64,000 nt of DNA from Octopus vulgaris. Lineage: Eukaryota. How positions within the stretch are numbered: the stretch's first letter is position 1; the number at the start of each line of letters is the position of its first letter. Both the position numbers and the translations under genes were made by a program. This document shows, piece by piece, positions 3,990-60,548 of this stretch. Below the pieces are notes generated by a model. The model worked only from the letters and a program-made list of their open reading frames with translations. It did no database searches and was not told where the DNA came from. Where the stretch lies: NCBI GenBank assembly GCA_951406725.2, contig OX597823.1, positions 1,364,001 to 1,428,000 on the forward strand. The letters are read 5' to 3'.

Positions 3990-4513
3990 ATCTTTGTTTT
4001 GCAACGTTTCTCTCTTGTTTGTCGATTTTTGCGTTGGCTAAAAAGGATTTCCGTGAAATTCTGTTTTCTGTTGGGGAAAACGGCAGCCAAAACAGTTGTC
4101 ATGCTTCTAACAATTTACAAGGACGCTGCCATGCGCAAAACACAAGTTTACGAGTGGTTTCCACGCTTCGGGAATGGTAACTTGTCATTTGAAGACCAAT
4201 GTCGCTCAGGGTGACTGTCGACCTCTCGAACGAATGAAAACATCACAAAAATTCATGAACTGGTCTTGGAAGACCGTCACCGATCAATTGACGGACTTAC
4301 TGATATGACTGATGTATCCTGGGACTGCTGCCAACAAATTTTGTGCGTGGAATTGCGAATGAAAAGTGTTGCAGCAAATTTTGTGTCTCGCTTGCTCGCG
4401 GAAGATTAGAAGCAGACACGGCTGAATGAGTGCCGTAAAGAGAAAGAACAGCCGGAAGTTGATCCGGACCTTTTTTTGGAAGGTCATCACTGGTGACGAA
4501 AACTGGTGCTACG
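3990..4513 (+). pseudogene. Mariner (Tc1/mariner) transposase pseudogene, N-terminal HTH to first catalytic Asp
   Basis: Fragments KFCFLLGKTAAKTVVML, KTQVYEWFPRF, EDQCRSG, LRMKSVAANFVSRLL and KVITGDENWCY, with frameshifts and stops. Truncated by a SINE. Confidence 0.9.
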
Positions 4514-4539
4514 GAATTTGCAGATTGTGGCACAAATTT

Positions 4540-4740
4540 TGGCACAAAGCCAGCAATTTTGGGGAGGGGCTAAGTCGATTACATCGACCCCGCAGTGCTC
4601 AACTGGTACTATTTCATCGACCTCAAAGGATGAAAAGCGGCGTTAACCTCAGCAAAATTTGAACTCAGAATGTAAAGACGGACGAAACGCCGCTAAGCAT
4701 TGGATCCGGCGTACTAACGATTCTGCCAGCTCGCCACTTT
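4540..4740 (-). mobile_element. tRNA-derived SINE, family 1
   Basis: Homologous to 3490-3720. Confidence 0.85.
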
Positions 4741-6281
4741 ACGCACACATATATATTCACAAGCACGTATACACATACACACAGGCACACTCATTCATCG
4801 AAGCACATGTATATAAACATACTCACCAACGCGTATGTGTACAAATACACACACAATGTTCATATTTACCAGAACGTTTTTGTAATCATTCAATAGGAGT
4901 GACAATATGGATTATGACCCTTTGCAAGGCGTCCAAGTGTGGTGGAGAAGGAGAGGACGATATCCTCACACGAAGGGTCAGGCCCAGATACTTGCAACAG
5001 ATAAGTCACCATAAATACCCGCTCCGCCCATTCAGCAGGGGCTACGTGGCAGTATTATACTGGGATATGGAATTAAAAACGTCAAAAATCGAAGCAAATA
5101 CGGGGACGATTTCTGTTCAGACGGTTTTACAGTTCCGCAAAACAACCCGTCCTCGATTTCTTTTGCTGATTTCAACCTCGGAAGGATGAAGGGCAACGTT
5201 GAAAATTGAAATCATCACAGCACAGAGAAGTGGAACAAATGCAACAAGGTATTTTAGTTGACGATTTAGTAATTTAGTAATTAGTTAAATTGCATGAAAT
5301 ATACACCGGCTGTAGAAGATTTCCCATACATGGAATATACAACACATATACTTATGAATTGTTGGGAAAGAAACGTCAAAGCTTGCAGAGATGGATGTGA
5401 AGTGTGTAGGAAATCAATAGAGAGACACTTTCGAAGGGAACACATATATACAGCATACAGAGAATACATAGCACATGCAGTATATATATATAGAGCATAG
5501 ATACAGGGATATAATACAATATGTAACATACACTCATGCAACATAGAGAGTAGGTACAACATAATACACAAAACATACTGTAAACATCGAATACTTGAGA
5601 ATGAAATAACCATACATGAACACACGATGCATATGTAAACTTTTATACTCTGCACAAACGAACGAACACACTATATACGCACATACAATCTGTGTATATC
5701 CGTACACATCTAGAATACATATATTCACACTCATACACGATGTCCCTCGGTATAAATGCGATGCCCACACACAATGTAGAAATACACACAAACCTCTGTG
5801 TTTAACCTTTGTAATGTTTTTCTTTATTTGTCCACTAAACATGGACAAGCATAAATAGGGATGAAATCAGATGAAACAGCCGACGCGATATGAATTATGC
5901 GTAATGTATTATCTGTTTGAGGCCAATAGAAATTATTTACACACACTCTGATAAACAAACGTGTCAAACTTCAGTTTTCGTATCGGAAAAATAACCCAGC
6001 TCCGTATTAATGAATCACGCATGCGCAGCTAGACCAGCCATCCCTGACCAGATTCTGATCACGTGTTTTAGACTGAATTTGACTAGAATCGGTTCATGAA
6101 GAATTTCGAATTAATGAGATTTTGATATTTCAAGATATCAATTCTCGTGTAATATTCTTCGTGGTTTTTTAATTTGAGCATTTTTTTGTTTTGTGCTGAC
6201 AGAGTGTTGTAAGAGTCCAGCATGAGAAGGAAACAGAAGCAAAATGATATTAGCAACGAAGTGTCTAGATATGTGTGTATA

Positions 6282-6445
6282 TGGCCGTGGCTCTGTGGTA
6301 AGAAGCTTGCTTCTCAACCAATGGTTTCGGGTTCACTCCCACTGCGTGACATCTTGGGCAAGTTTCTTCTATTATAGCCCCGGGCCGATCAAAGCCTTCT
6401 GAGTGGATTTGGTAGATGGACACTGAAAGTAGCCTGTCATATATA
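6282..6445 (+). mobile_element. tRNA-derived SINE, family 2 (CORE-like), 5' part
   Basis: gtggctctgtggtaag (A box), gggttcactccc (B box), and cttgggcaagt (CORE-like). Confidence 0.8.
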
Positions 6446-30019: not shown

Positions 30020-32750
30020 TATGTACGTTACCAATACCATGTTTCAACAAAAGAATAAGCTTAAGACTACATGGATGCACCCTGCATCTAAAGAATGGCA
30101 TATTCTGGATTACATCCTAGTTAGGGTGCGTGACAGTCAGGATGTGCAGTGTGTTCGTGTTCTTCGTGGAGCTGAGTGTTGGACTGACCACCGCCTAGTA
30201 CGTGCAAAAGTGAAATTAGTCACAAAACATAAAATCCGAGCTGCAGGGATGACCCTGCCTAAAAGACTGAATCTTGATCGTCTTAGGTATAATAGTGTGA
30301 AGAGAACTTTACGAGAGGAAATGAATGCTGCAGATATTGGGGAGGATTGGCCGGCCCTTAAAAAGTCAGTTTATGATATAGGCAAAAAAAGTTCTGGGAT
30401 TGATACAAAGAAAGCATCAATATTGGTTCAAAGAAAATGATGAACATAAAGATGGTTTATTGGCTGATAAAAGACGTACTTTGTCACGCTATTTGTCAGC
30501 AAAGTCACAGGAAAGGGAAGTGTTGCATAGGGAACTCAAGGACATAAAATCACGTGTGAGGCAAAGGCTCTCTCAGATGAGGGATACGTGGTGGAGTAAG
30601 AAGGCTGACGAGATACAGGCGGCATCAGATTCCAATAACACAAAGCTGTGGTATAGTCTCTTGCGAGAAGTTTATGGACCGACGTCTTCCCTGATGACAC
30701 CAATTCGAAGCAGGGATGGTAAAGAACTTCTTCGTGATTCACAAGGAATTCTGCGAAGGTGGCAAGGACATTTTGATGAACTTTTGAATCAGCATTCTGT
30801 AGTTAGTGAGGATGTTCTCAATCTCATCCCTGGATGGCCTGTGAAGGCAGCACTCGCAGAACCACCAAAGAAGTTGCAATGGCTGTCTCAAGGTTGAATA
30901 ATGGGAAGTCTCCGGGTATGGATGGCATACATGCGGAGTTGTTACCACATGGTGGTGAGAAAATTCTGCAGAAACTTCACTCTTTGTTTGGTATGGTATG
31001 GACTAGTGAATCTGTACCTGAAGACTGGAGAGATGCAGTAATGGTGGTCCTATATAAGGGTAAGGGCAACATTGTGGTAATTATAGGGGAATATCATTGC
31101 TGTCTGCTGTAGGAAAGGTTTTATGCAGGATACTTCTGGACCGTCTGCTGAAATACATTACTGATTGTGTTCTTCCAGAAAGTCAATTTGGCTTTCATGT
31201 GGGATGCGGCACTGCTGATATGATCTTTTCAGCTAGACAGCTTCAGGAAAAGTGTGTGGAACAGGGTCTGGATTTGTATCAGGTGTTTGTCGATCTGACA
31301 AAAGCCTTTGATACCGTCAATAGAAAAGCATTGTGGAAAGTCCTCCAGAAACTTGGGTGTCCTGAAAAGTTCCTTGCTTTGGTTAGGTCTTTTCATGAAG
31401 ACATTAATGGTAGGGTGAATGTTAGAGGGAAGATGTCGGAGCCCATTTCAATACAAAATGGAGTGAAACAGGGGGATATTCTGGCATCGACCCTATTTTC
31501 CATATATTTCGCGATGGTGTTCTGTATTGCATTCAGAGACTGCAGATACGGTTTTTACGTCCATTATCGAACCTCTGGCAGCATATTTAATATCAGGCGC
31601 CTTGCTGCAAAAACAAAGATATTTACCTCTATCATAAGAGACCTTTTGTATGCTGATGATTGTGAGCTAGTAGCACACACAGAGATTGATATGCAACACA
31701 TTTTGAATGCATTCTCTGATGCTTGCACTGCCTTAGGATTGACAGTCAATCTCAAGAAAACTGTTGTCATGCATCAACCTACCCCTAGTAAGCAGTATAG
31801 TGTACCAAATATCTATGTGAATAGTAAACGACTTGATGTAGTCGATCAGTTTGTCTACCTGGGAAGCACTATTAATAGATATGTCAATTTGGATGATAAA
31901 ATTCCATATAGAATTAGGAAAGCAAGTGTTGCTTTCGGAAGGCTAGAAAAGCGCCTCTGGAGTCGGCGAGACATGCAGAAAGACAAAGATAAAGGTGTAC
32001 AAGGCATGTGTGCTCCCTTCTCTTCTCTATGTCTGCGAGACGTGGGTCACATATCGATACCACCTTAAACATCTGGAACGTTTCCATCAGACGGATCTAT
32101 GGCATTAAGTGGAAGGACCGCATCAGTGATCTTGAAATATTGGAAGGCTCTCGGTGTGAAAGTATAGAAGCTCTTGTGTTAAAGCAAAGGCTCAGATGGA
32201 GTGGTCATCTGGTCTGGATGAAGGATTCAAGGATGCCAAAACAATTCTTTTTTGGAGAGTTAGCTAAAGGAGAACGACCTCCACATAAACCAAAAAAGAG
32301 GTATAAGGACTTGCTGAAGGCTTCCTTAAGAGATGCTTGCATCTCTCCTGACACATGGGAAGGCATAGCTATTGATCGTAGCAGGTGGAGAAGGATTGTG
32401 CATGAGGGGACAGCCACGTTTGAGAAATCTCGAGTTGCACATGAGAAAGTAAGGAGGGATGTCAGGAAGGGCATCGCTGTTAGACTTCCAGAAGGGAAGG
32501 GTCGTCCTTTGATTCTGACATGCAATGTCTGTGCAAGACCCTGCCTCGGTAAAACTGAACTCATGAGTCATCTTCGTAGTCATAAAACGAGACAGATGAG
32601 TGACAACCTGGCCACTGGTGGTGGTGTAACACACCATACTAATCATATCTGTCGGGCATGTGGAAGGGAGTGTAATTCGGCAGGAGGACTTAAACGACAT
32701 GCAAAGGTACATGAAGCCCAGTTACAACTACAGCCGGCTATTACCGGCTA
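30020..32750 (+). mobile_element. 5'-truncated RTE-clade LINE (end of APE, RT, two C-terminal C2H2 fingers), frameshifted
   Basis: TWMHP..ILDY..TDHRLV, KSPGMDGI, PESQFGF, FVDLTKAFD, GVKQG, LYADD, YLGS, RLRWSGH, CNVC..HLRSH and CRAC..HAKVH. Confidence 0.93.
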
Positions 32751-34869: not shown

Positions 34870-35365
34870 TATATCACTGAGTGATACACACACACATGTT
34901 ATGATCGGCGGAAACCACTCAAGCCCAGCAAAGTCACCAGTAGTATCCCGCAGGGGTCTGTCTTTGGTCCGCTTCTGTTCATAGTCTATATAAACGACTT
35001 TTCTCACGTCATAAATCACAGCAAAGTGAAAATATTCCCTGATGACTCTAAGCTTCACAAAATCATCAACGGAGACGAAGACCGAAATGAACTCCAATCG
35101 GATCTCCATGCTGTGAGTCAATGGGCAGACAAAAACAAAATGCAACTAAACGAGGGAAAATTTGAGCTGATGCATTTTGGAAGAAAGACTCTGCTAAAAC
35201 AACCATACTCTCTTTCTTCAAGGGAACCACTTACAACATCTAATATCAGAGACGTAGGAGTAATTGTTGATAAAAATCTTGGAGTACCAACATCATCAAT
35301 AAAGTCGATATAGCTCGTAGAGTGAGTTCCTGGATCCTAAGAACCTTCCGGTCCAGAGAACAAGG
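34870..35365 (+). pseudogene. CR1/Jockey-group LINE RT fragment
   Basis: VTSSIPQGS...LLFIVYIND...KIFPDDSKL...LQSDL...W...NKMQLN..K...IRDVGVIVD. Confidence 0.85.
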
Positions 35366-42000: not shown

Positions 42001-43666
42001 CACACATACATACATATACATACATATTCTTTTGCTAACGAAACCTCCTAAACAGTAAATGACGCATATATATTTATTTTCTAACGATTGTGGTGTGATC
42101 TGCACATCGTATCTGCATTCACATGGCGTTTTCTACATTTGATGTAGTCGTCAGTCTGCAGCAAGGGTCATAGTTTAGACAAACACTGTAGAAGATTAGT
42201 TAGAAAGATTCTGAGCGTACAGTGTTTGCTGACATTGTAACTGGCAGAAGAATTATTGAAATAGCTATCGGGAAGATAAATGTTGGTCGGAAGTTCTTTT
42301 GAACAAACAGGATGGTTCTAGAATCATACGATTCCCTCAGTAGAACATTCCCAGTGATGAAGAAACCGTAAAAGTCGAAAGAAAATTATCCTTGCATCTC
42401 AGCTTTGGAAGTTGCCTTCTGGGATAACAACGGGAGGAATGGAGAGAGATGGAGTAGTAGTCGGAGTTGGAAGAAGATGAGAGGGAGTAGGTGAGAGAGC
42501 GGGTGAAAGAGTGGAAGAAGTAGTGAAAGGGAGAGTGTGCGTGTAAATGGTGGATGGAGCTGTCAGAGGAGACGAAACAATAAAATGTTTAAAAATGGAT
42601 TTTTTTAAAGTGAGAAAGTTTTTTTATTGCATTTTTCTCTTTTAAAAATTCCCTCCCTCACCCTCTCTCTTTCCCTCCCCCTCCTCTGTTTCTCTCCTTC
42701 CTTCACCCTTTCTCCCTCACTTTCTCAATCTCTCTCTCTAGCCACTCTTTCTTCTTCCCTTCTTCCCCCCTCTCTTCCTCTCCTACTCCTTCCCAGTCTT
42801 TCTTTCCTCCTCTTTTCCTTTCTTTAAAATCTCAATCTTTCCTAAATTGCTCTCCTAAACAACTCTCCATACCGCAATCCTACTTTCACTTTCAACTCTC
42901 CAGATTTTCGCTTATTTCAATGATTCATTCTTTTTTTTTTAATTTCTCGACTTTCACTTCTCACTTTGGATTCCTTTCTTTCCTCGAGTATTCTTCACTT
43001 CTCCTCCTTCTAATCACCCTCTGTCTCTCTACCTGTCTCTCTCCTATTCATATTTTTTTCTATATTCTCAAATCTCAAATAAATAAATTTTATTCACACA
43101 CACCCATCCGTACCTTTGTATAAGTGCTTCCGACCCCATCCTTATTCTTAATCAAATACGATCTAATATCCTTTGGGATATTTATATTAAAACTGCGTAA
43201 TTCAACTCTAAATTAGAGAGTCGAAAGACTCATGAGTCCTTCTTTGATATAACTGGAAATATCTAATCTACGAGAAAGCATAGACTAATCATTTAGGTTC
43301 TTGTTTACGGATTATAGCTTATCCTATTTGTCAACAGAGCTTAACTAATATATTAACTTTCTCTTAGAGTGTGGTTATGGATGATTAGCTTTTTAATTAT
43401 TAAACCAATCTCATATTTTTGGAATTAATTCTCTTGTTGTCAAAAGTAATCTCTGTTCAGCTTCTAAGATCAACAGAATCGGAACCCAGCTCTGACTTTC
43501 GTATCGTTAATCCGGTTTGAAGTAACCTTTTATCTGGAAAATACTCTACATTATAAGAAATAGCATTCAGACAGAAGGAATTATATCTAACACGGCAAAT
43601 CATTTGGCAATGTCTTTATACCTTCTTATGGTACCTATACGCACAAAATATGGAGCCACTCGAGTT

Positions 43667-43677
43667 AACAAGAGACC
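43667..43677 (+). repeat. Left target-site duplication AACAAGAGACC
   Basis: Identical to 48022-48032. Confidence 0.9.
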
Positions 43678-44762
43678 TCAATAGTAAATTGTTTGGACAT
43701 ATCGGGGTTAGATAAGACTTCCTCCCAGTCGATCATTTTGATCGGGTGAGGCTTAGTTTTTTTGGATGAGCGAAGACTAAGCTTAACGGTAGCTGATACA
43801 ATTCTGTGGTCAGAGCCGACAGAACTAAAGGAAGAGTAGGATCTCGAGTCCTTAACACTATTGCGCCATTTCTTTCGAAAGATGAGGTAGTCAATTTGTG
43901 CCCTATCACCAAGTGGGGACTCAAATGTCCAAAGTTGACCTTTTGGTTTCATAAAAGAATTGTTGGAGGTGTAGAGATTAAATTCCTCCAAGAAGTCTTT
44001 GAGCATTTCTCCGTTCCGATTGGTTTTAGAGTTGAAAGTAAACTTGGTCTCATCGGGTCCTAGTCTAGCATTCAGATCACCAGCTATAACCAGAAAATTA
44101 TGGAGAGGTACTTGCTCAATGGTTGAACGAAGGGTTGTATAGAAATTTTCAATTTCGTCTGCCACAGACGAATTATGTGGGCTATATACACATACCAATG
44201 TTGTTTTTGGGTTTCCATCTATCTCAAGCACCATAATTCTAGGTGAAATTGACTCTATACTCAAGAGAGAATCACTGGCTTTTGATGAAAGTAGAAATCC
44301 AATACCTCCAACTGTTGAATTAACAGTATTCTTTGATGCTGAGGAGGTTACAAGTTGATAAGAACCGACTTGATGGTATTTGAGGATGTTGTCAGGGTGG
44401 TAAAATCGGTGTTCTTGGACCGCTATTATATCAATGCCATGTGATTCTGCATTTGCACCAAGTTCTTCTAGACGGCCAAGAGAGCCGAGGGTGCGGGCAT
44501 TGAGGGTGCTGAGTATCGTATGATTTTTACAGCTGATGAGGTGTTTGTTTGGTGTTGTTTGGTTGGGGGCTGACTCTTCTCCATCAGGTGATACCCGTCT
44601 GTTAAGATTGAGGGCATCACCGTCAATGGATGCCCTTGGAGGTGAAACATGATCAGAGACAGGACCCTGCAAAGCAGGGGCTGGACCTACATCCGCAGGT
44701 ATACCATTAGGTCTGGTTCCCTGGGGAAGAGGAACCCTGGTGCAGTTAATTGTAAATTCCAT
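43678..44762 (-). CDS. APE-type endonuclease half of the RTE ORF (uninterrupted)
   Basis: STLNARTL, IAVQEHR, VYSP, GDLNARLG, TNRNG, QIDY and SDH. The reading frame breaks off at KQFTIEV. Confidence 0.93.
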
Positions 44763-45429
44763 AGTCTTTTCAAATGGCTAATAATGTGTGCGCGCGCCAC
44801 TACTACACACATTGGAAAGCATTGTACAACCAAGTACTAAAGAAGATCTTTCCTCCTCCATGAAACAAAGCTGTTCCCGCTGGACGTCAACCCAGTACTT
44901 CTAAGCTACGGGCTGAGTGATTTATTGTAAGGTTATCTTCCTAGATAGATTGCCTTCACTACGGCTAAGGAGCCCTTTCTACCCCACTGACACAGGTTGT
45001 ACTGGTTTACAGTTTACCAGTAGTAGGATCCGATGCTGCATACAACAGACCTGACCTGACAAGATCGTTCAGAATTGGTTGAGCAATGGCATTAATGGGA
45101 AGGACAAGTGGGGGAGAGCCATTTAGTACTTCAATATTTGCGTCTGCGTATGTTTGTATAAGTATGAATAATGTGTTTATGTGCGAGAAGGCACATGCTT
45201 TTGTCTATCGTTAATTTAATTTAAATTTTTCTCACGTTTTTCCCTTTTAAAGTATTTCTTTTTAAAGTAATTTACACCCTGGAGGGAGGGCTGAGGGTTT
45301 GTTTTTACTGTAGATTCTCTTTTCTCCCAACAAAGAAAAAGAAAGGGATTTTTCATTGGTGTCACCGGTATAATTCAGACACGGGGAGAAACATCTCGAT
45401 GTCATTCAAACTTGTATGTTTCTAATTGT

Positions 45430-45461
<32 letters not shown>

Positions 45462-45957
45462 GTTCTGGCAGCAGCCGCAGCAATGCAGCAGCAACTACTG
45501 CTTTCGTAGGGTGAGAAGAAGAACGTTCGGTCAGAGAGAGTTCAAATGTCTGCTATATTGTTGATAGAACTTTCGAACATACGCTGACCTTGTTGATAGA
45601 ACTTTCGAACATACACTGACCTTGACTTGGAGACAAATCAAGGAGGGGCCGACTATGAACAGGACTTGTGAATAGAGTCGTGTACGAGCAGAGAGAAACT
45701 ATAAAGAGTATTTTTCTTTTTCCTTCTTATTCTCCACATGTTTTATTTCTGCGATTACAATAAAAGGTATGTTCGCATATTTCGGGTAGTCAAGAAGAAA
45801 ATAAAGGTTAGCAGGTGTTTACGTCCATAATTTTAGCGTGCATTTAATTGTGTTGTTACAATAAAGGCATTTTTACAAAATGTTCACACAAAAGATGGAA
45901 ATATTTATGTTTCTAAAATTTTGTCCCAAACTGTAGGTTTGTAAGTCTTTAACTTAT

Positions 45958-48009
45958 TTGAGGGAAATTCAATCTCTGTCTACTTCTGAAATAGATGCTG
46001 AGAACATTGAGGAAGTATACAGCAGCCTCATCAAATCAACAGAGGAGGTTGCACTGGCTACTCTTCCCAAAAGGAAGAGTAGGGGCCAGAGCAAACCTTC
46101 TAATTCCCCAAATGTCATCGAAGCCAGAAACCATCTAAAGTCTATATCACTAGCTTACCACCGTTCTCCATCCCAGTCACTGAAGATCCAACTCATAGCT
46201 GCCAGGAAGAATCTTGATGAGGCTTACTTGAACGCCGAGGTCGAATTTATCAATGGCAAAATTAGTAAACTATCGAAAGAGCACATTAGTAAAAAACACC
46301 ATCTCGCCTGGAAATCCATCAAAGACCTATCAGGCAAAAGTTCTGGGTCATCAATTAGAATTAAAGGGGGATCAGCTAAGAAGCGTTTAGAAAATTGGTC
46401 AACACATTTTAAAAACCTCCTTGGGAAGAATGCCAAAATCCCTGATAACCCCACTCTCCCAAGTGTGCCTATATCAGACACGCTGGACATCAACACCTCC
46501 CCTTTTACCATATTTGAACTAACAGCAGCCACCAAGCAACTAAAAGCCTCGAAAGCATTTGGTCCCGACAACATTCCGGCTGTGATTTGGAAGGATGATA
46601 GATTTCACACACTTTTGCTTAACCTCTGCAACCACACACTTTCCACCTTTGTCGCTCCAGAGATTTGGCACCAATCTCAAATCATTCCAATACCCAAAAA
46701 AGGCGATTTGTCCCTCGTCACCAACTACAGGGGCATATCTCTAATGTCAATTGCTGCAAAACTGTACAACAAACTGATCATAAATCGTCTTGTCCTTTTT
46801 GTTGAACCTTTGCTCCGAAAGAACCAAAATGGATTCAGACATGGGCGCTCAACGCTAAGCCAGATACTATGCCTGCGCAGACTTATTGAAGAATCAAAAG
46901 CATTTAATCGCGATCTTGCAATGGTATTTGTAGACTTTTCTAAAGCGTTCGATTCTTTAGATAGGTACAAGATGTTTGAAATCCTTAAGCTCTATGGGAT
47001 ACCAGACAAAATTATTTCTGCCATCAAGGTCCTCTACACAGATACGTCTTCAACCATCTTAACCCCTGATGGAGAAACATCATCTTTCTCGATCGAGGCC
47101 GGAATACTGCAGGGAGACACACTCGCCCCATTTCTTTTCATCATTGTTGTTGATTATGTACTACGTATGTCAGTTGATACCATCTCTGGCAAGGGCTTTG
47201 AAATAAAACCAAGAAGAAGTTCCAGACACCCAGCTGAGTACTTGACAGACACTGACTTTGCTGACGACATCGCTCTTATCAGTGATTCTCTCTCCAATGC
47301 CCAGTCTCTCTTACAATCTCTTGAACAAGCCTCAAATTGTGTAGGTCTTTACCTCAATGAGACCAAAACTGAATACATAAACAAGTGCCTGTCCAACAGT
47401 GATTGCATCATCCACACTCTCAACAGTGCACCTTTAAATATGGTTTCTGATTATAAATATCTTGGGTCATACATATCATCATCTGGAAAAGACTTTCTAA
47501 CTAGAAAGGGTATGGCCTGGTCAGCCTGTAATGACATGCATAAGATCTGGTCATCAAATCTAAGTAGAGACTTCAAACTTGAAATATTCAAATCCACAGT
47601 CGAACCAATCCTACTATATGACTCAGAAACCTGGACGTTATCAAAGAAGCTTGAGAGGCGGTTGGATGGAACCTACACTCGCCTCCTTATGAGAGCTCAA
47701 AATCTCTCGTGGAGGCGCCATCCAACTAAAATGCAAATATATGGGAAATTACCACCTGTGTCATCTCTTGTGAAAGGTAGGAGAGTCCAGTTTGCTGGAC
47801 ATTGTTGTAGAGCTGAAAAAGAAGTAATTTCTACTCTTCTCCTCTGGAAGCCATCTACTCGCAACACCAGAGGGCGCACACTCTCCTACCCTGATGTAAT
47901 CTCCAGGGATACAGGCATCCAGCAACAGGACCTCCGTAATGCTATGATGGACCGTGAAGTCTGGCGCAACATGGTAAATTCCATTGTCTCGACCACGGTC
48001 GAACAATGA
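45958..48009 (+). CDS. Reverse transcriptase half of the same RTE ORF (uninterrupted)
   Basis: KAFGPDNIP, NYRGISL, QNGFR, FVDFSKAFD, GILQGDTLAP, FADD, YLGS and FAGH. The annotated start is an artefact of the inversion junction. Confidence 0.95.
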   Translation: MREIQSLSTSEIDAENIEEVYSSLIKSTEEVALATLPKRKSRGQSKPSNSPNVIEARNHLKSISLAYHRSPSQSLKIQLIAARKNLDEAYLNAEVEFINGKISKLSKEHISKKHHLAWKSIKDLSGKSSGSSIRIKGGSAKKRLENWSTHFKNLLGKNAKIPDNPTLPSVPISDTLDINTSPFTIFELTAATKQLKASKAFGPDNIPAVIWKDDRFHTLLLNLCNHTLSTFVAPEIWHQSQIIPIPKKGDLSLVTNYRGISLMSIAAKLYNKLIINRLVLFVEPLLRKNQNGFRHGRSTLSQILCLRRLIEESKAFNRDLAMVFVDFSKAFDSLDRYKMFEILKLYGIPDKIISAIKVLYTDTSSTILTPDGETSSFSIEAGILQGDTLAPFLFIIVVDYVLRMSVDTISGKGFEIKPRRSSRHPAEYLTDTDFADDIALISDSLSNAQSLLQSLEQASNCVGLYLNETKTEYINKCLSNSDCIIHTLNSAPLNMVSDYKYLGSYISSSGKDFLTRKGMAWSACNDMHKIWSSNLSRDFKLEIFKSTVEPILLYDSETWTLSKKLERRLDGTYTRLLMRAQNLSWRRHPTKMQIYGKLPPVSSLVKGRRVQFAGHCCRAEKEVISTLLLWKPSTRNTRGRTLSYPDVISRDTGIQQQDLRNAMMDREVWRNMVNSIVSTTVEQ

Positions 48010-48021
48010 TGAATGATGATG

Positions 48022-48032
48022 AACAAGAGACC
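48022..48032 (+). repeat. Right target-site duplication AACAAGAGACC
   Basis: Immediately follows the LINE tail. Confidence 0.9.
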
Positions 48033-57885: not shown

Positions 57886-60548
57886 TAAAAAAACAAACAG
57901 TTCAACTCCGACCCCAAAAAGTTCTACCAAGAACTTGGCAAGAATAAAATAGACATCACTGCAGCACCAACGGCAGAAGAAGTGGAAGAATTCTGTAAAG
58001 AAATATGGTCGGCGAATGACAACCAAACAACAGGAGTATTAAAACAACAAACATAGCATCTGAGCAACTTTGGACCCCCATAACAACTGAAGAGCTCACC
58101 CAGGCACTGCGAAGACTAAGCAACTGGAAGGCACCTGGGCATGACAAGATCTCCAACTTCTGGTTGAAATATCTAACAGGAATGCACAAAAAGCTGGTTG
58201 AAAGCTTTAACAACATACTGGCAGAGCCAGAGACAATGCCTCAATGGCTCACGAAGAGGAAAACTATCTTAATTCCCAAATCAAATGAAACAGCAAAACC
58301 AGAAAACTACAGACCAATAACCTGTCTCCCTACAATATACAAGGAATTTACTGCAGTGATATCACAAAGATTAAACAAGCACCTGGACGAAAACAACCTG
58401 TTTCCAGAAGAGCAGAAAGGATGCCGCAAAGGCTCATATGGCTGTAAAGATCAACTAATGATCAATAAAGCCATTACTGAAGACAGCCACAGAAAGAAGA
58501 AAGGCCTCAGTATGGCCTGGATCGACTACAGAAAGGCGTTTGATAGCATCCCCCACACATGGATCCTCGAAACACTAGCCATTAACAAAGTAGCACCAAC
58601 AATCATAAAATTCATTGGGCACTCTATGAATAAATGGCAAACAGTGCTACAGCTCCAAACAAAAGAGGGACTCATGAAAACTAAAGCCATCCCCATTAGA
58701 AGAGGAATATTCCAGGGAGACACGCTCTCTCCACTCCTTTTCTGCTTGGCACTGTCACCTCTATCTGATATGCTAAATAGAACTGGATGCAGATATAAAT
58801 GTTACGGCAAAACGATCAACCACCTTTTATATATGGATGACTTAAAACTATACGCTGCAAATGACAAACAGCTGGAAACACTATTAAAGACAGTTCATGG
58901 ATTTACCAAAGAAATAGATATGGAATTTGGATTAGAGAAATGCGTCAAAGTAATCCTGAAAAGAGGAAACTAATTAAGAGTAGCAACATCATGCTAGATA
59001 AAACCAATGAAATAAAAGACTTAAACCAAAGCCAAACTTACAAATACTTAGGAATCCATGAACTAGATAAGACACAACACGCACAAATGAAAGAGAAAAT
59101 AAAGAAAGAATATTATAGACGAGTTAGATCAATACGAAAAACAAAGCCCAATGCTAAAAGCAAGATAATAGTTATTAACACTTTAGCTGTCCCAGTAATA
59201 AGTTATAGCTACAATATCCTTAACTGGACACTAAATGAACTGACCAAAATAGATAGGAAAACAAGAAAAATACTGACAAGATCTAGGATGCATCACCCAA
59301 AATCTGACATAGAAAGACTATATATACAACGTATAGAAGGTGGTAGAGGCCTTATACAGCTGGAAAACTACTATAAAATAACCACCATAGGACTTCAAAA
59401 ATATCTACTTCAGAAGGAAGGAAAACTGATACAAATAGCGGCAAAACACGAGCAAAACAAAAAACTGTTCTCAGTATTTAAGGAAGCTGACAAATACAAA
59501 CAAGAAATCATACCACCTAATAAATATGAAGAAGAAGAAGAAGAAGAAGAAGAAGAAGAAGAAGAAGAAGAAGAAGAAGAAGAAGAAGAAGAAGAAGAAG
59601 AAGAAGAAGAAGAAGAAGAAGAAGAAGAAGAAGAAGAAACAACAAAAGCTATAAAACAAATGAAATCCAAACTAAACCTAGAACAGCAAAGAACCATGAT
59701 AAAACGATGGCAAGAAAAGCCCCTTCATGACGAATACTGGACTAAACTAAATGCAAAAGAAATAGACAAAAAAAATCCCAGCAGTGGTTGAGAAGCTCAG
59801 GACTCAAAGCAGAGACAGAGGGATTTTTAATTGCAGCACAATACCAAAGCCTCCACCAGAAATTACCAAAAACATGTAATGAAAAGAAATATAACAAGTA
59901 ACTGCAGAATATGTGGAGATGGACAAGAAACAATAAATCATATTATCTCTGGCTGCCCAGTCCAGGCTAAGAAGGAATATATTCACAGACACGACAGAGT
60001 TGGGTGCTACATACACTGGAAGCTATGCCAACATTATGTAATAACAACAGAAAAAAGATGGTATAGGCACACACCAGAAAAGGTCACAGAAAACGAGAAA
60101 GCAACCATACTGTGGGATATGGCGATACACAACAGACCAGATATAGTTGTCAGAGATCATGAAGAAAAAGAAATGCATTCTAATTGATGTATCAATACCG
60201 GCAGATGACAACGTGTCTCTAAAAGAAATGGAGAAACTCTCAAAATACAAAGACCTGGAAATAGAGGTAACTAGAATGTGGAATCTGAAAACAGAAACAA
60301 TTCCTATCATAGTAGGTGCATTAGGCATGATAAAAAAATATTCAGACAAATACATAACAAAAACACCAGGACTTACAAACACATATAACATACAGAAAAT
60401 TGCACTACTAGGCACTGCACACATCCTACGCAGAACACTTTCCATACAATAACCATCAGAGCATCAAACAAGTCACAGCACATACCTAAGGCACACAGAG
60501 CTGCGCTCGGTAGTGAAGTGAAAGCACGCTATAAAGAATATACTACTG
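57880..60548 (+). mobile_element. R4/Dong-like element B (RT, CCHC, RLE), 5'-truncated and frameshifted
   Basis: NWKAPG, NYRPITCL, EQKGC, AWIDYRKAFD, GIFQGD, LYMDD, YKYLG, GGRGL, C..C..H...C, RHD, NRPD and GTAHILR. (AAT)n tail. Confidence 0.95.
59528..59638 (+). repeat. (GAA)n of about 37 units, in frame within the Dong ORF
   Basis: Poly-Glu run in ORF 58940-59791. Confidence 0.97.

Follow-up and report, generated by a model that had tools for sequence, protein, structure and literature searches.

The twin-priming model for 5'-inverted copies of L1, a long interspersed nuclear element (LINE), reportedly goes back to Ostertag and Kazazian in 2001. In the portions of the literature available to us, on which every citation below relies, the model is described for mammalian L1 (PMC2912911, PMC4245944), twin-primed copies are marked by microhomology at either end of the inverted part as well as at the inversion junction, and about 30% of lineage-specific L1 copies are inverted (PMC2912911). 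Apart from one Nimb-2_DR insert in chicken DT40 cells, 5' inversions were seen almost solely for L1 in human cells, and it was proposed that 5' inversion needs a long (10-20 nt) unprocessed 3' overhang together with host factors (PMC4245944). For the RTE clade, a peak in target site duplication (TSD) length at 10-12 bp is cited (PMC4245944, PMC6007223), template-switch chimeras are all that the accessible part of one study reports for RTE and L2 (PMC4476161), an expansion of RTE-BovB in cephalopods is noted (PMC10294476), and young RTE families are described in octopus in texts whose available parts leave inversions unmentioned (PMC9115989, PMC13282606). A literature search, outside which most subscription papers and supplements lay, found in the text portions covered no paper on 5' inversions of RTE elements or on an RTE element with a CR1 leader. 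Here we describe a LINE copy with an inverted 5' part in a 64-kb stretch of genomic DNA (G000:C10:1364001-1428000, hereafter the window), together with its relatives in the same 2.8-Gb assembly of 227 contigs, to which all own-genome searches refer. The size and microsatellite load of this assembly hint at a cephalopod-like invertebrate host.

We regard it as highly probable (roughly 85%) that this locus records one insertion of a young LINE with a single open reading frame (ORF), whose front 2.3 kb came to lie antisense to its back 2.05 kb within an 11-bp TSD via twin priming. As in mammalian L1, the order is TSD, antisense 5' part, sense 3' part, tail and TSD, microhomology is present at the 5' and inversion junctions, and inverted copies keep full-length TSDs while truncated ones have shorter or missing TSDs. 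In contrast to mammalian L1, the element has a single ORF without an ORF1 protein, ends in (TGA)n instead of poly(A), and resides in a host that is likely an invertebrate. Its TSDs measure 10-11 bp against about 15 bp in mammalian L1, and inversion is rarer (5/39 among long copies and 1/40 among those chosen by their 3' end, compared with roughly 30% for lineage-specific L1; PMC2912911). The Nimb-2_DR insert in chicken DT40 cells (PMC4245944) is likewise a 5'-inverted non-L1 LINE with a TSD of about 12 bp, but it is a single cultured-cell event from another clade, whereas 14 genomic copies were found here. RTE-clade LINEs such as RTE-BovB in molluscs (PMC10294476) and RTE-2_OV (PMC9115989) share the single ORF with endonuclease (EN) and reverse transcriptase (RT), the short microsatellite tail and a TSD of 10-12 bp, which usually starts with A. 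However, RTE-2_OV is described with 1109 aa, untranslated regions (UTRs) of about 600 nt and a C2H2 finger (PMC9115989), while the ORF of the present element encodes 1046 aa and its composite leader measures 1.36 kb. Because these traits differ, RTE-2_OV, set apart here by its description, is likely another family.

Layout of the window copy

The 11-mer AACAAGAGACC is present at 43667-43677 and again at 48022-48032, and these are its only two occurrences across the window, none being within the element. Since the bases adjoining both repeat copies mismatch on either side, the target duplication is exactly 11 bp, as the initial annotation had proposed. The left flank (43300-43666) is single-copy in the genome, and its one match leaves no empty allele elsewhere in the assembly. 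The TSD encloses an antisense 5' part (43673-45972), followed by a sense 3' part (45968-48021). Two stop-free halves had been recognized before, and this was borne out: Pfam places an endonuclease in the minus-strand frame 43665-44777 (ATG at 44762) and a reverse transcriptase in the plus-strand frame 45937-48009.

The internal end of the antisense part adjoins the left TSD, whose last five bases AGACC (43673-43677) equal the reverse complement of the element at that point and are likely the internal priming site. From there, the inverted ORF part with the N-terminus and the apurinic/apyrimidinic (AP)-like endonuclease occupies 43678-44762 (minus), without a stop and about 99% identical to colinear copies. 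It is adjoined by native 5' UTR at 44763-45059 (minus), which is common to older copies (L075, L085, L087, L089, L090 and L095 align from about here), by a 58-nt piece at 45060-45117 (minus) that matches the interior of ORF1 of an unrelated two-ORF LINE, and by the 5' UTR of that LINE at 45118-45972 (minus), which the young subfamily carries. This copy falls short of the full-length 5' tip by about 149 nt. At the inversion junction (45968-45972, plus), the antisense leader and the sense RT part overlap in the 5-nt microhomology TTCAA. The sense ORF part (45968-48009, plus) comprises the linker, the reverse transcriptase and the C-terminus and runs stop-free to a TGA at 48007-48009. It is followed by a very short 3' UTR with a (TGA)n-type microsatellite tail, 12 nt in all (48010-48021, plus), and by the right TSD. 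Two boundaries had to be moved: the antisense 5' end lies at 45972 and not near 45060, which is an older leader boundary, 45060-45972 being the 5' leader of the family; and the sense part starts at 45968 instead of 45958.

Each part of the element was searched against its own genome, and the best 40 scored places per search were retained. The endonuclease half continues directly into the RT half in all 19 fetched copies that span the breakpoint, which confirms colinearity in other genomic copies; a 20th fetched locus, L080, ends before the breakpoint and is outside this count. In all 19, the relatives read ...TIEV-YNKF-QSLS... across the join, and 9 nt between the halves were lost in the window copy. 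The two halves had been taken for consecutive parts of one ORF; that they belong to one family and one ORF holds, but they are not strictly consecutive. The colinear ORF, 1046 aa in length, is intact in 7 of the 27 copies that span it, and the leader contains no ORF of at least 60 aa. Across 27 colinear copies, the distance to the window endonuclease half tracks the distance to the RT half (Spearman 0.89). Because of this correlation, both halves are assigned to one young subfamily and not to different families. Compared with the majority of the ten youngest copies, the window copy differs at 24 of 3132 sites, while those ten differ at 2-19. The family is young, yet no member of the young set has diverged further than the window copy, which is not among the newest and is itself dead. 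The suggestion of recent activity is accordingly correct for the family, with its intact ORFs, but not for this copy.

Among the 27 of 62 window frames of at least 130 aa that were scanned for host genes, three other RT fragments and one sub-threshold match were obtained, and no host gene was seen near the window copy. The three RT fragments lie at 31064-32068, 34885-35313 and 58020-58973.

Inverted copies across the family

After de-duplication by position, the family census comprised 123 distinct copies with a 3' end (L075, L080 and L226 have none and were excluded from copy counts), and 14 of these, the window copy included, are 5'-inverted. A non-simple TSD of at least 9 nt was present in 10/14 inverted copies compared with 26/106 tested colinear copies (Fisher P=0.0008); its length was 10 in four of the ten inverted copies, 11 in five and 13 in one. 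Across the family, non-simple TSDs range from 9 to 14 bp and are mostly 9-12 bp long. As a chance control, the left boundary of one copy was compared with the right flank of another, which gave a non-simple repeat of at least 9 nt in just 6 of 595 cases. The inverted part begins 0-6 nt from the TSD end in all 11 copies with a usable TSD, and the 3' end of the TSD shares 2-5 nt of microhomology with the element at the priming point in 8 of these 11 (chance P ~6e-8). When the window copy was left out, priming-point microhomology of at least 2 nt was present in 7/10.

Of the 13 copies that could be read at the internal junction, 12 have microhomology of 1-6 nt and the remaining one carries 33 extra bases (four were read by eye, L076, L119 and L207 among them; L090 was left out). 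The two parts meet at most 25 nt apart on the element in 8/14 copies and are separated by gaps of about 0.16-1.8 kb in five, and one copy consists of three pieces; any overlap of the two parts is at most 16 nt in all 14. As for frequency, 5/39 copies picked 1 kb from the 3' end and 5/39 picked in the endonuclease were inverted, giving about 1 in 8 long copies (5/39; Wilson interval 6-27%). These anchored samples overlap, and inverted pieces shorter than 24 nt would escape detection.

Several individual copies deserve description. L068 (G000:C23:41625500-41635400) is an inverted copy reaching the full-length 5' tip, and the 33 extra bases at its inversion junction (locus 6191-6223) are CA/CG-rich. 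In L165 (G000:C2:123716000-123724000, locus 4097-6442), a 10-bp T-rich repeat encloses three pieces in succession: one inverted, one short and in sense orientation that stems from a more upstream region, and the sense 3' part. Internal same-strand duplications were seen in L080 (G000:C12:43128457-43131323), which has the full 5' tip and no 3' end, and in L116. Simple repeats (TA, TATG, CAT, ACT) contain or adjoin many copies, including L062, L091, L093 and L095, a pattern that could stem from a target preference or from the microsatellite load of the genome. L111, L163 and L162 start near the start of the window sense part; they have no inverted part upstream and were set aside as unrelated to the window event. 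L111 and L163 (G000:C20:57.87 and 57.95 Mb) lie 76 kb apart, share their flanks and truncation point, and are likely a segmental duplication.

Twin priming as the probable mechanism, and its alternatives

The layout and its two microhomologies are observed directly, and 13 other copies are arranged alike; the priming steps themselves would run as follows. The endonuclease would cut the two strands 11 nt apart, and from one of the ends reverse transcription would start at the (TGA)n tail. The 3' overhang on the opposite side, which terminates in AGACC, would pair with GGUCU in the middle of the RNA and prime a second complementary DNA (cDNA) towards the RNA 5' end. The two cDNAs would then be joined via TTCAA, whereby the 9 nt separating the halves and some 149 nt of the 5' tip would be lost. 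Both new junctions of the window copy carry 5-nt microhomology, in one case located where the TSD ends on its 3' side, in line with the predictions of twin priming.

Independent contig sets were available from two samples of organism A (X1, X2) and from organism B (X3). Contigs of all three run from the unique left flank to 43702, which is 25 nt beyond the TSD into the antisense endonuclease; at the right junction, X2 and X3 contigs pass from 27-28 nt of the element, and X1 from 5 nt, into the right flank. The insertion appears common to the three samples.

A number of observations weigh against the twin-priming reading. The outer-junction contigs reach just 25-30 nt into the element (5 nt on the right in X1), which is under the 31-letter bridging rule; the internal junction is absent from the listed X1-X3 contig pieces, and no empty-site joint is found among the best 15 of 36 joint rows of these sets. 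Four of the 14 inverted copies have no non-simple TSD, two being in TA repeats, one having a T-rich 10-mer, and one old copy having none. At the priming junction, 1 or 6 extra bases replace the microhomology in two copies. Since 5'-junction microhomology is also common among colinear truncated copies, it is not specific by itself. Inversion was seen in only 1/40 copies picked by the last 191 nt, i.e. by the 3' end alone, and all samples are best-40 match lists biased to young, long copies. Moreover, sequence alone cannot prove RNA copying by a second primer.

One alternative is a single event in which the first cDNA, or its double-stranded form, was broken or processed and its 5' piece attached backwards by microhomology-mediated repair of the host, with no second priming on RNA. 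The same layout and microhomologies would result, and the extra junction bases (33 nt in L068, 6 nt in L119) as well as the three-piece L165 show repair-type processing. However, such repair does not predict that inverted copies keep the full, narrow 10-11-bp TSD more often than colinear ones, and the 0.16-1.8 kb gaps between the parts in 5/14 copies fit two independently ended cDNAs instead, so we judge this explanation improbable. Snap-back synthesis on the cDNA, as with R2 proteins (PMC11371274), would also place antisense element sequence at the 5' junction, yet it should duplicate sense-part sequence, while here the sense part does not contain the inverted part, and in none of the 14 copies do the two overlap by more than 16 nt. 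Two insertions at one site fare no better: a second insertion should bring its own tail, but the antisense part lacks one and stops 9 nt short of where the sense part starts. Both are extremely unlikely.

A later genomic inversion of 43678-45972 within a colinear insert would have had time to occur, the window copy being the most diverged of the young set, and end-joining inversions also typically have microhomology at both breakpoints. Nevertheless, such an inversion would require one breakpoint to coincide precisely with the edge of the TSD, and the inverted part begins within 6 nt of the TSD end in 11/11 usable-TSD copies; we hold this course to be very improbable. The earlier conclusion of a single integration is thus supported, although the step in its argument that placed the LINE 5' UTR near 45060 was wrong. 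An assembly artefact at a repeat could be suspected in view of the internal junction, which the contigs do not directly show. Against it stand the left junction in X1, X2 and X3 (three samples, two organism labels), the passage from tail to right flank in X2 and X3, the private TSDs and microhomologies of the other inverted copies, and antisense-5' to sense-3' joints in these short-read contigs (e.g. 44780 to 47767 in X1 and X2). Misassembly, which the initial annotation had raised as an objection, is therefore scarcely to be expected, with the left junction in three samples and the layout shared by 13 other copies.

The likely clade and an apparently captured leader

The element likely belongs to the RTE clade, a label that fits its anatomy: a single ORF (1046 aa in colinear copies) with AP-like endonuclease and RT, no ORF1, and an RTE-type 3' end with a short 3' UTR and a 12-nt (TGA)n tail. 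Its homologues are proteins of about 1040 aa with EN and RT on 3.2-4-kb contigs, and no clade name occurs among the 120 listed homologues. When the endonuclease was compared with the Atlas, 'craniofacial development protein 2-like' came out as the top cluster, a label which we take to be linked to BovB/RTE. A DUF6451 match was weak and below cut-off, and L1 and R2 are distant.

The outer 0.9 kb of the inverted part, a leader common to the young subfamily, was apparently captured from an unrelated two-ORF LINE, as judged from sequence matches. Positions 45118-45972 match the 5' UTR of a 5.4-kb LINE (12 copies fetched, L214-L225) that has a 389-aa ORF1, an ORF2 with EN and RT (found as EN and RT pieces) and a (CTAA)n tail. 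The 58 nt at 45060-45117 match the inside of the donor ORF1 with 89-98% identity to L214-L225, and between these two pieces the leader lacks about 740-830 nt of donor sequence, the ORF1 start among them. The donor leader meets the RTE leader at a shared CTT(G), and four older RTE copies (L075, L085, L087 and L090, 92-96% identity) have a different sequence upstream of this join. The donor RT is 26% identical to the family RT over 294 aa. From its C-terminal motif we take the donor to be CR1-like; its two ORFs, EN+RT ORF2 and microsatellite tail are CR1-type features. The donor ORF1 (L224:7110-8276, minus, 389 aa) has no Pfam family, and its Atlas matches are all below 0.9, with a weak baculovirus FP-like lead (0.81).

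The alternative that 45065-45960 is target DNA or a one-off 5' transduction was rejected, since it is contiguous with the endonuclease in nine other copies (L061, L062, L063, L064, L066, L068, L069, L080 and L086); the segment is element sequence and not local target sequence, a possibility that had been raised earlier. The capture likely predates the window insertion, and the captured leader probably supplies a promoter. An RTE copy may have inserted into a donor copy and been transcribed from the donor promoter, or a template switch may have occurred, and the chimera would then have founded the young subfamily. Replacement and turnover of the 5' UTR is known from L1 lineages. As in the co-option of outside promoters by L1 (PMC13174262), a LINE lineage would here have spread with an acquired 5' leader; unlike in L1, the donor is another LINE, and its ORF1 start was deleted from the captured piece.

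Some further features of these sequences were recorded. Within the captured leader, a tandem duplication of 32 nt lies at window 45558-45621 and a (CAG)n tract at 45429-45460; one X3 contig lacks the duplication. Several donor-LINE 5' ends, some of them oppositely oriented, are clustered near the start of C17 (L167-L169, G000:C17:22000-51700).

At the family level, the finding is a well-supported case of a known L1 mechanism in a clade from which few such cases are documented. The captured leader is a second feature and a less expected one. The broader statement is to us an even bet: an RTE LINE devoid of ORF1 would twin-prime in about 1/8 of its long insertions, nearly only where the full 10-11-nt stagger survives, and its youngest subfamily would have spread after taking over a promoter from a CR1-type LINE. 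With TSDs of 10-11 bp, this single-ORF family, rich in young copies, lies at the lower limit of overhang length that was predicted (PMC4245944), which makes the overhang idea testable by counting, and the present counts agree with it. If the broader statement is true, 5' inversion would depend solely on an overhang of about 10 nt and not on ORF1 protein, poly(A) or a host that is a mammal, and twin priming would be a general property of endonuclease-bearing LINEs and not an L1 trait. Repeat annotation that splits inverted copies into two fragments would then miscount insertions. The captured leader, in turn, offers a testable case of a LINE lineage gaining the promoter of another clade.

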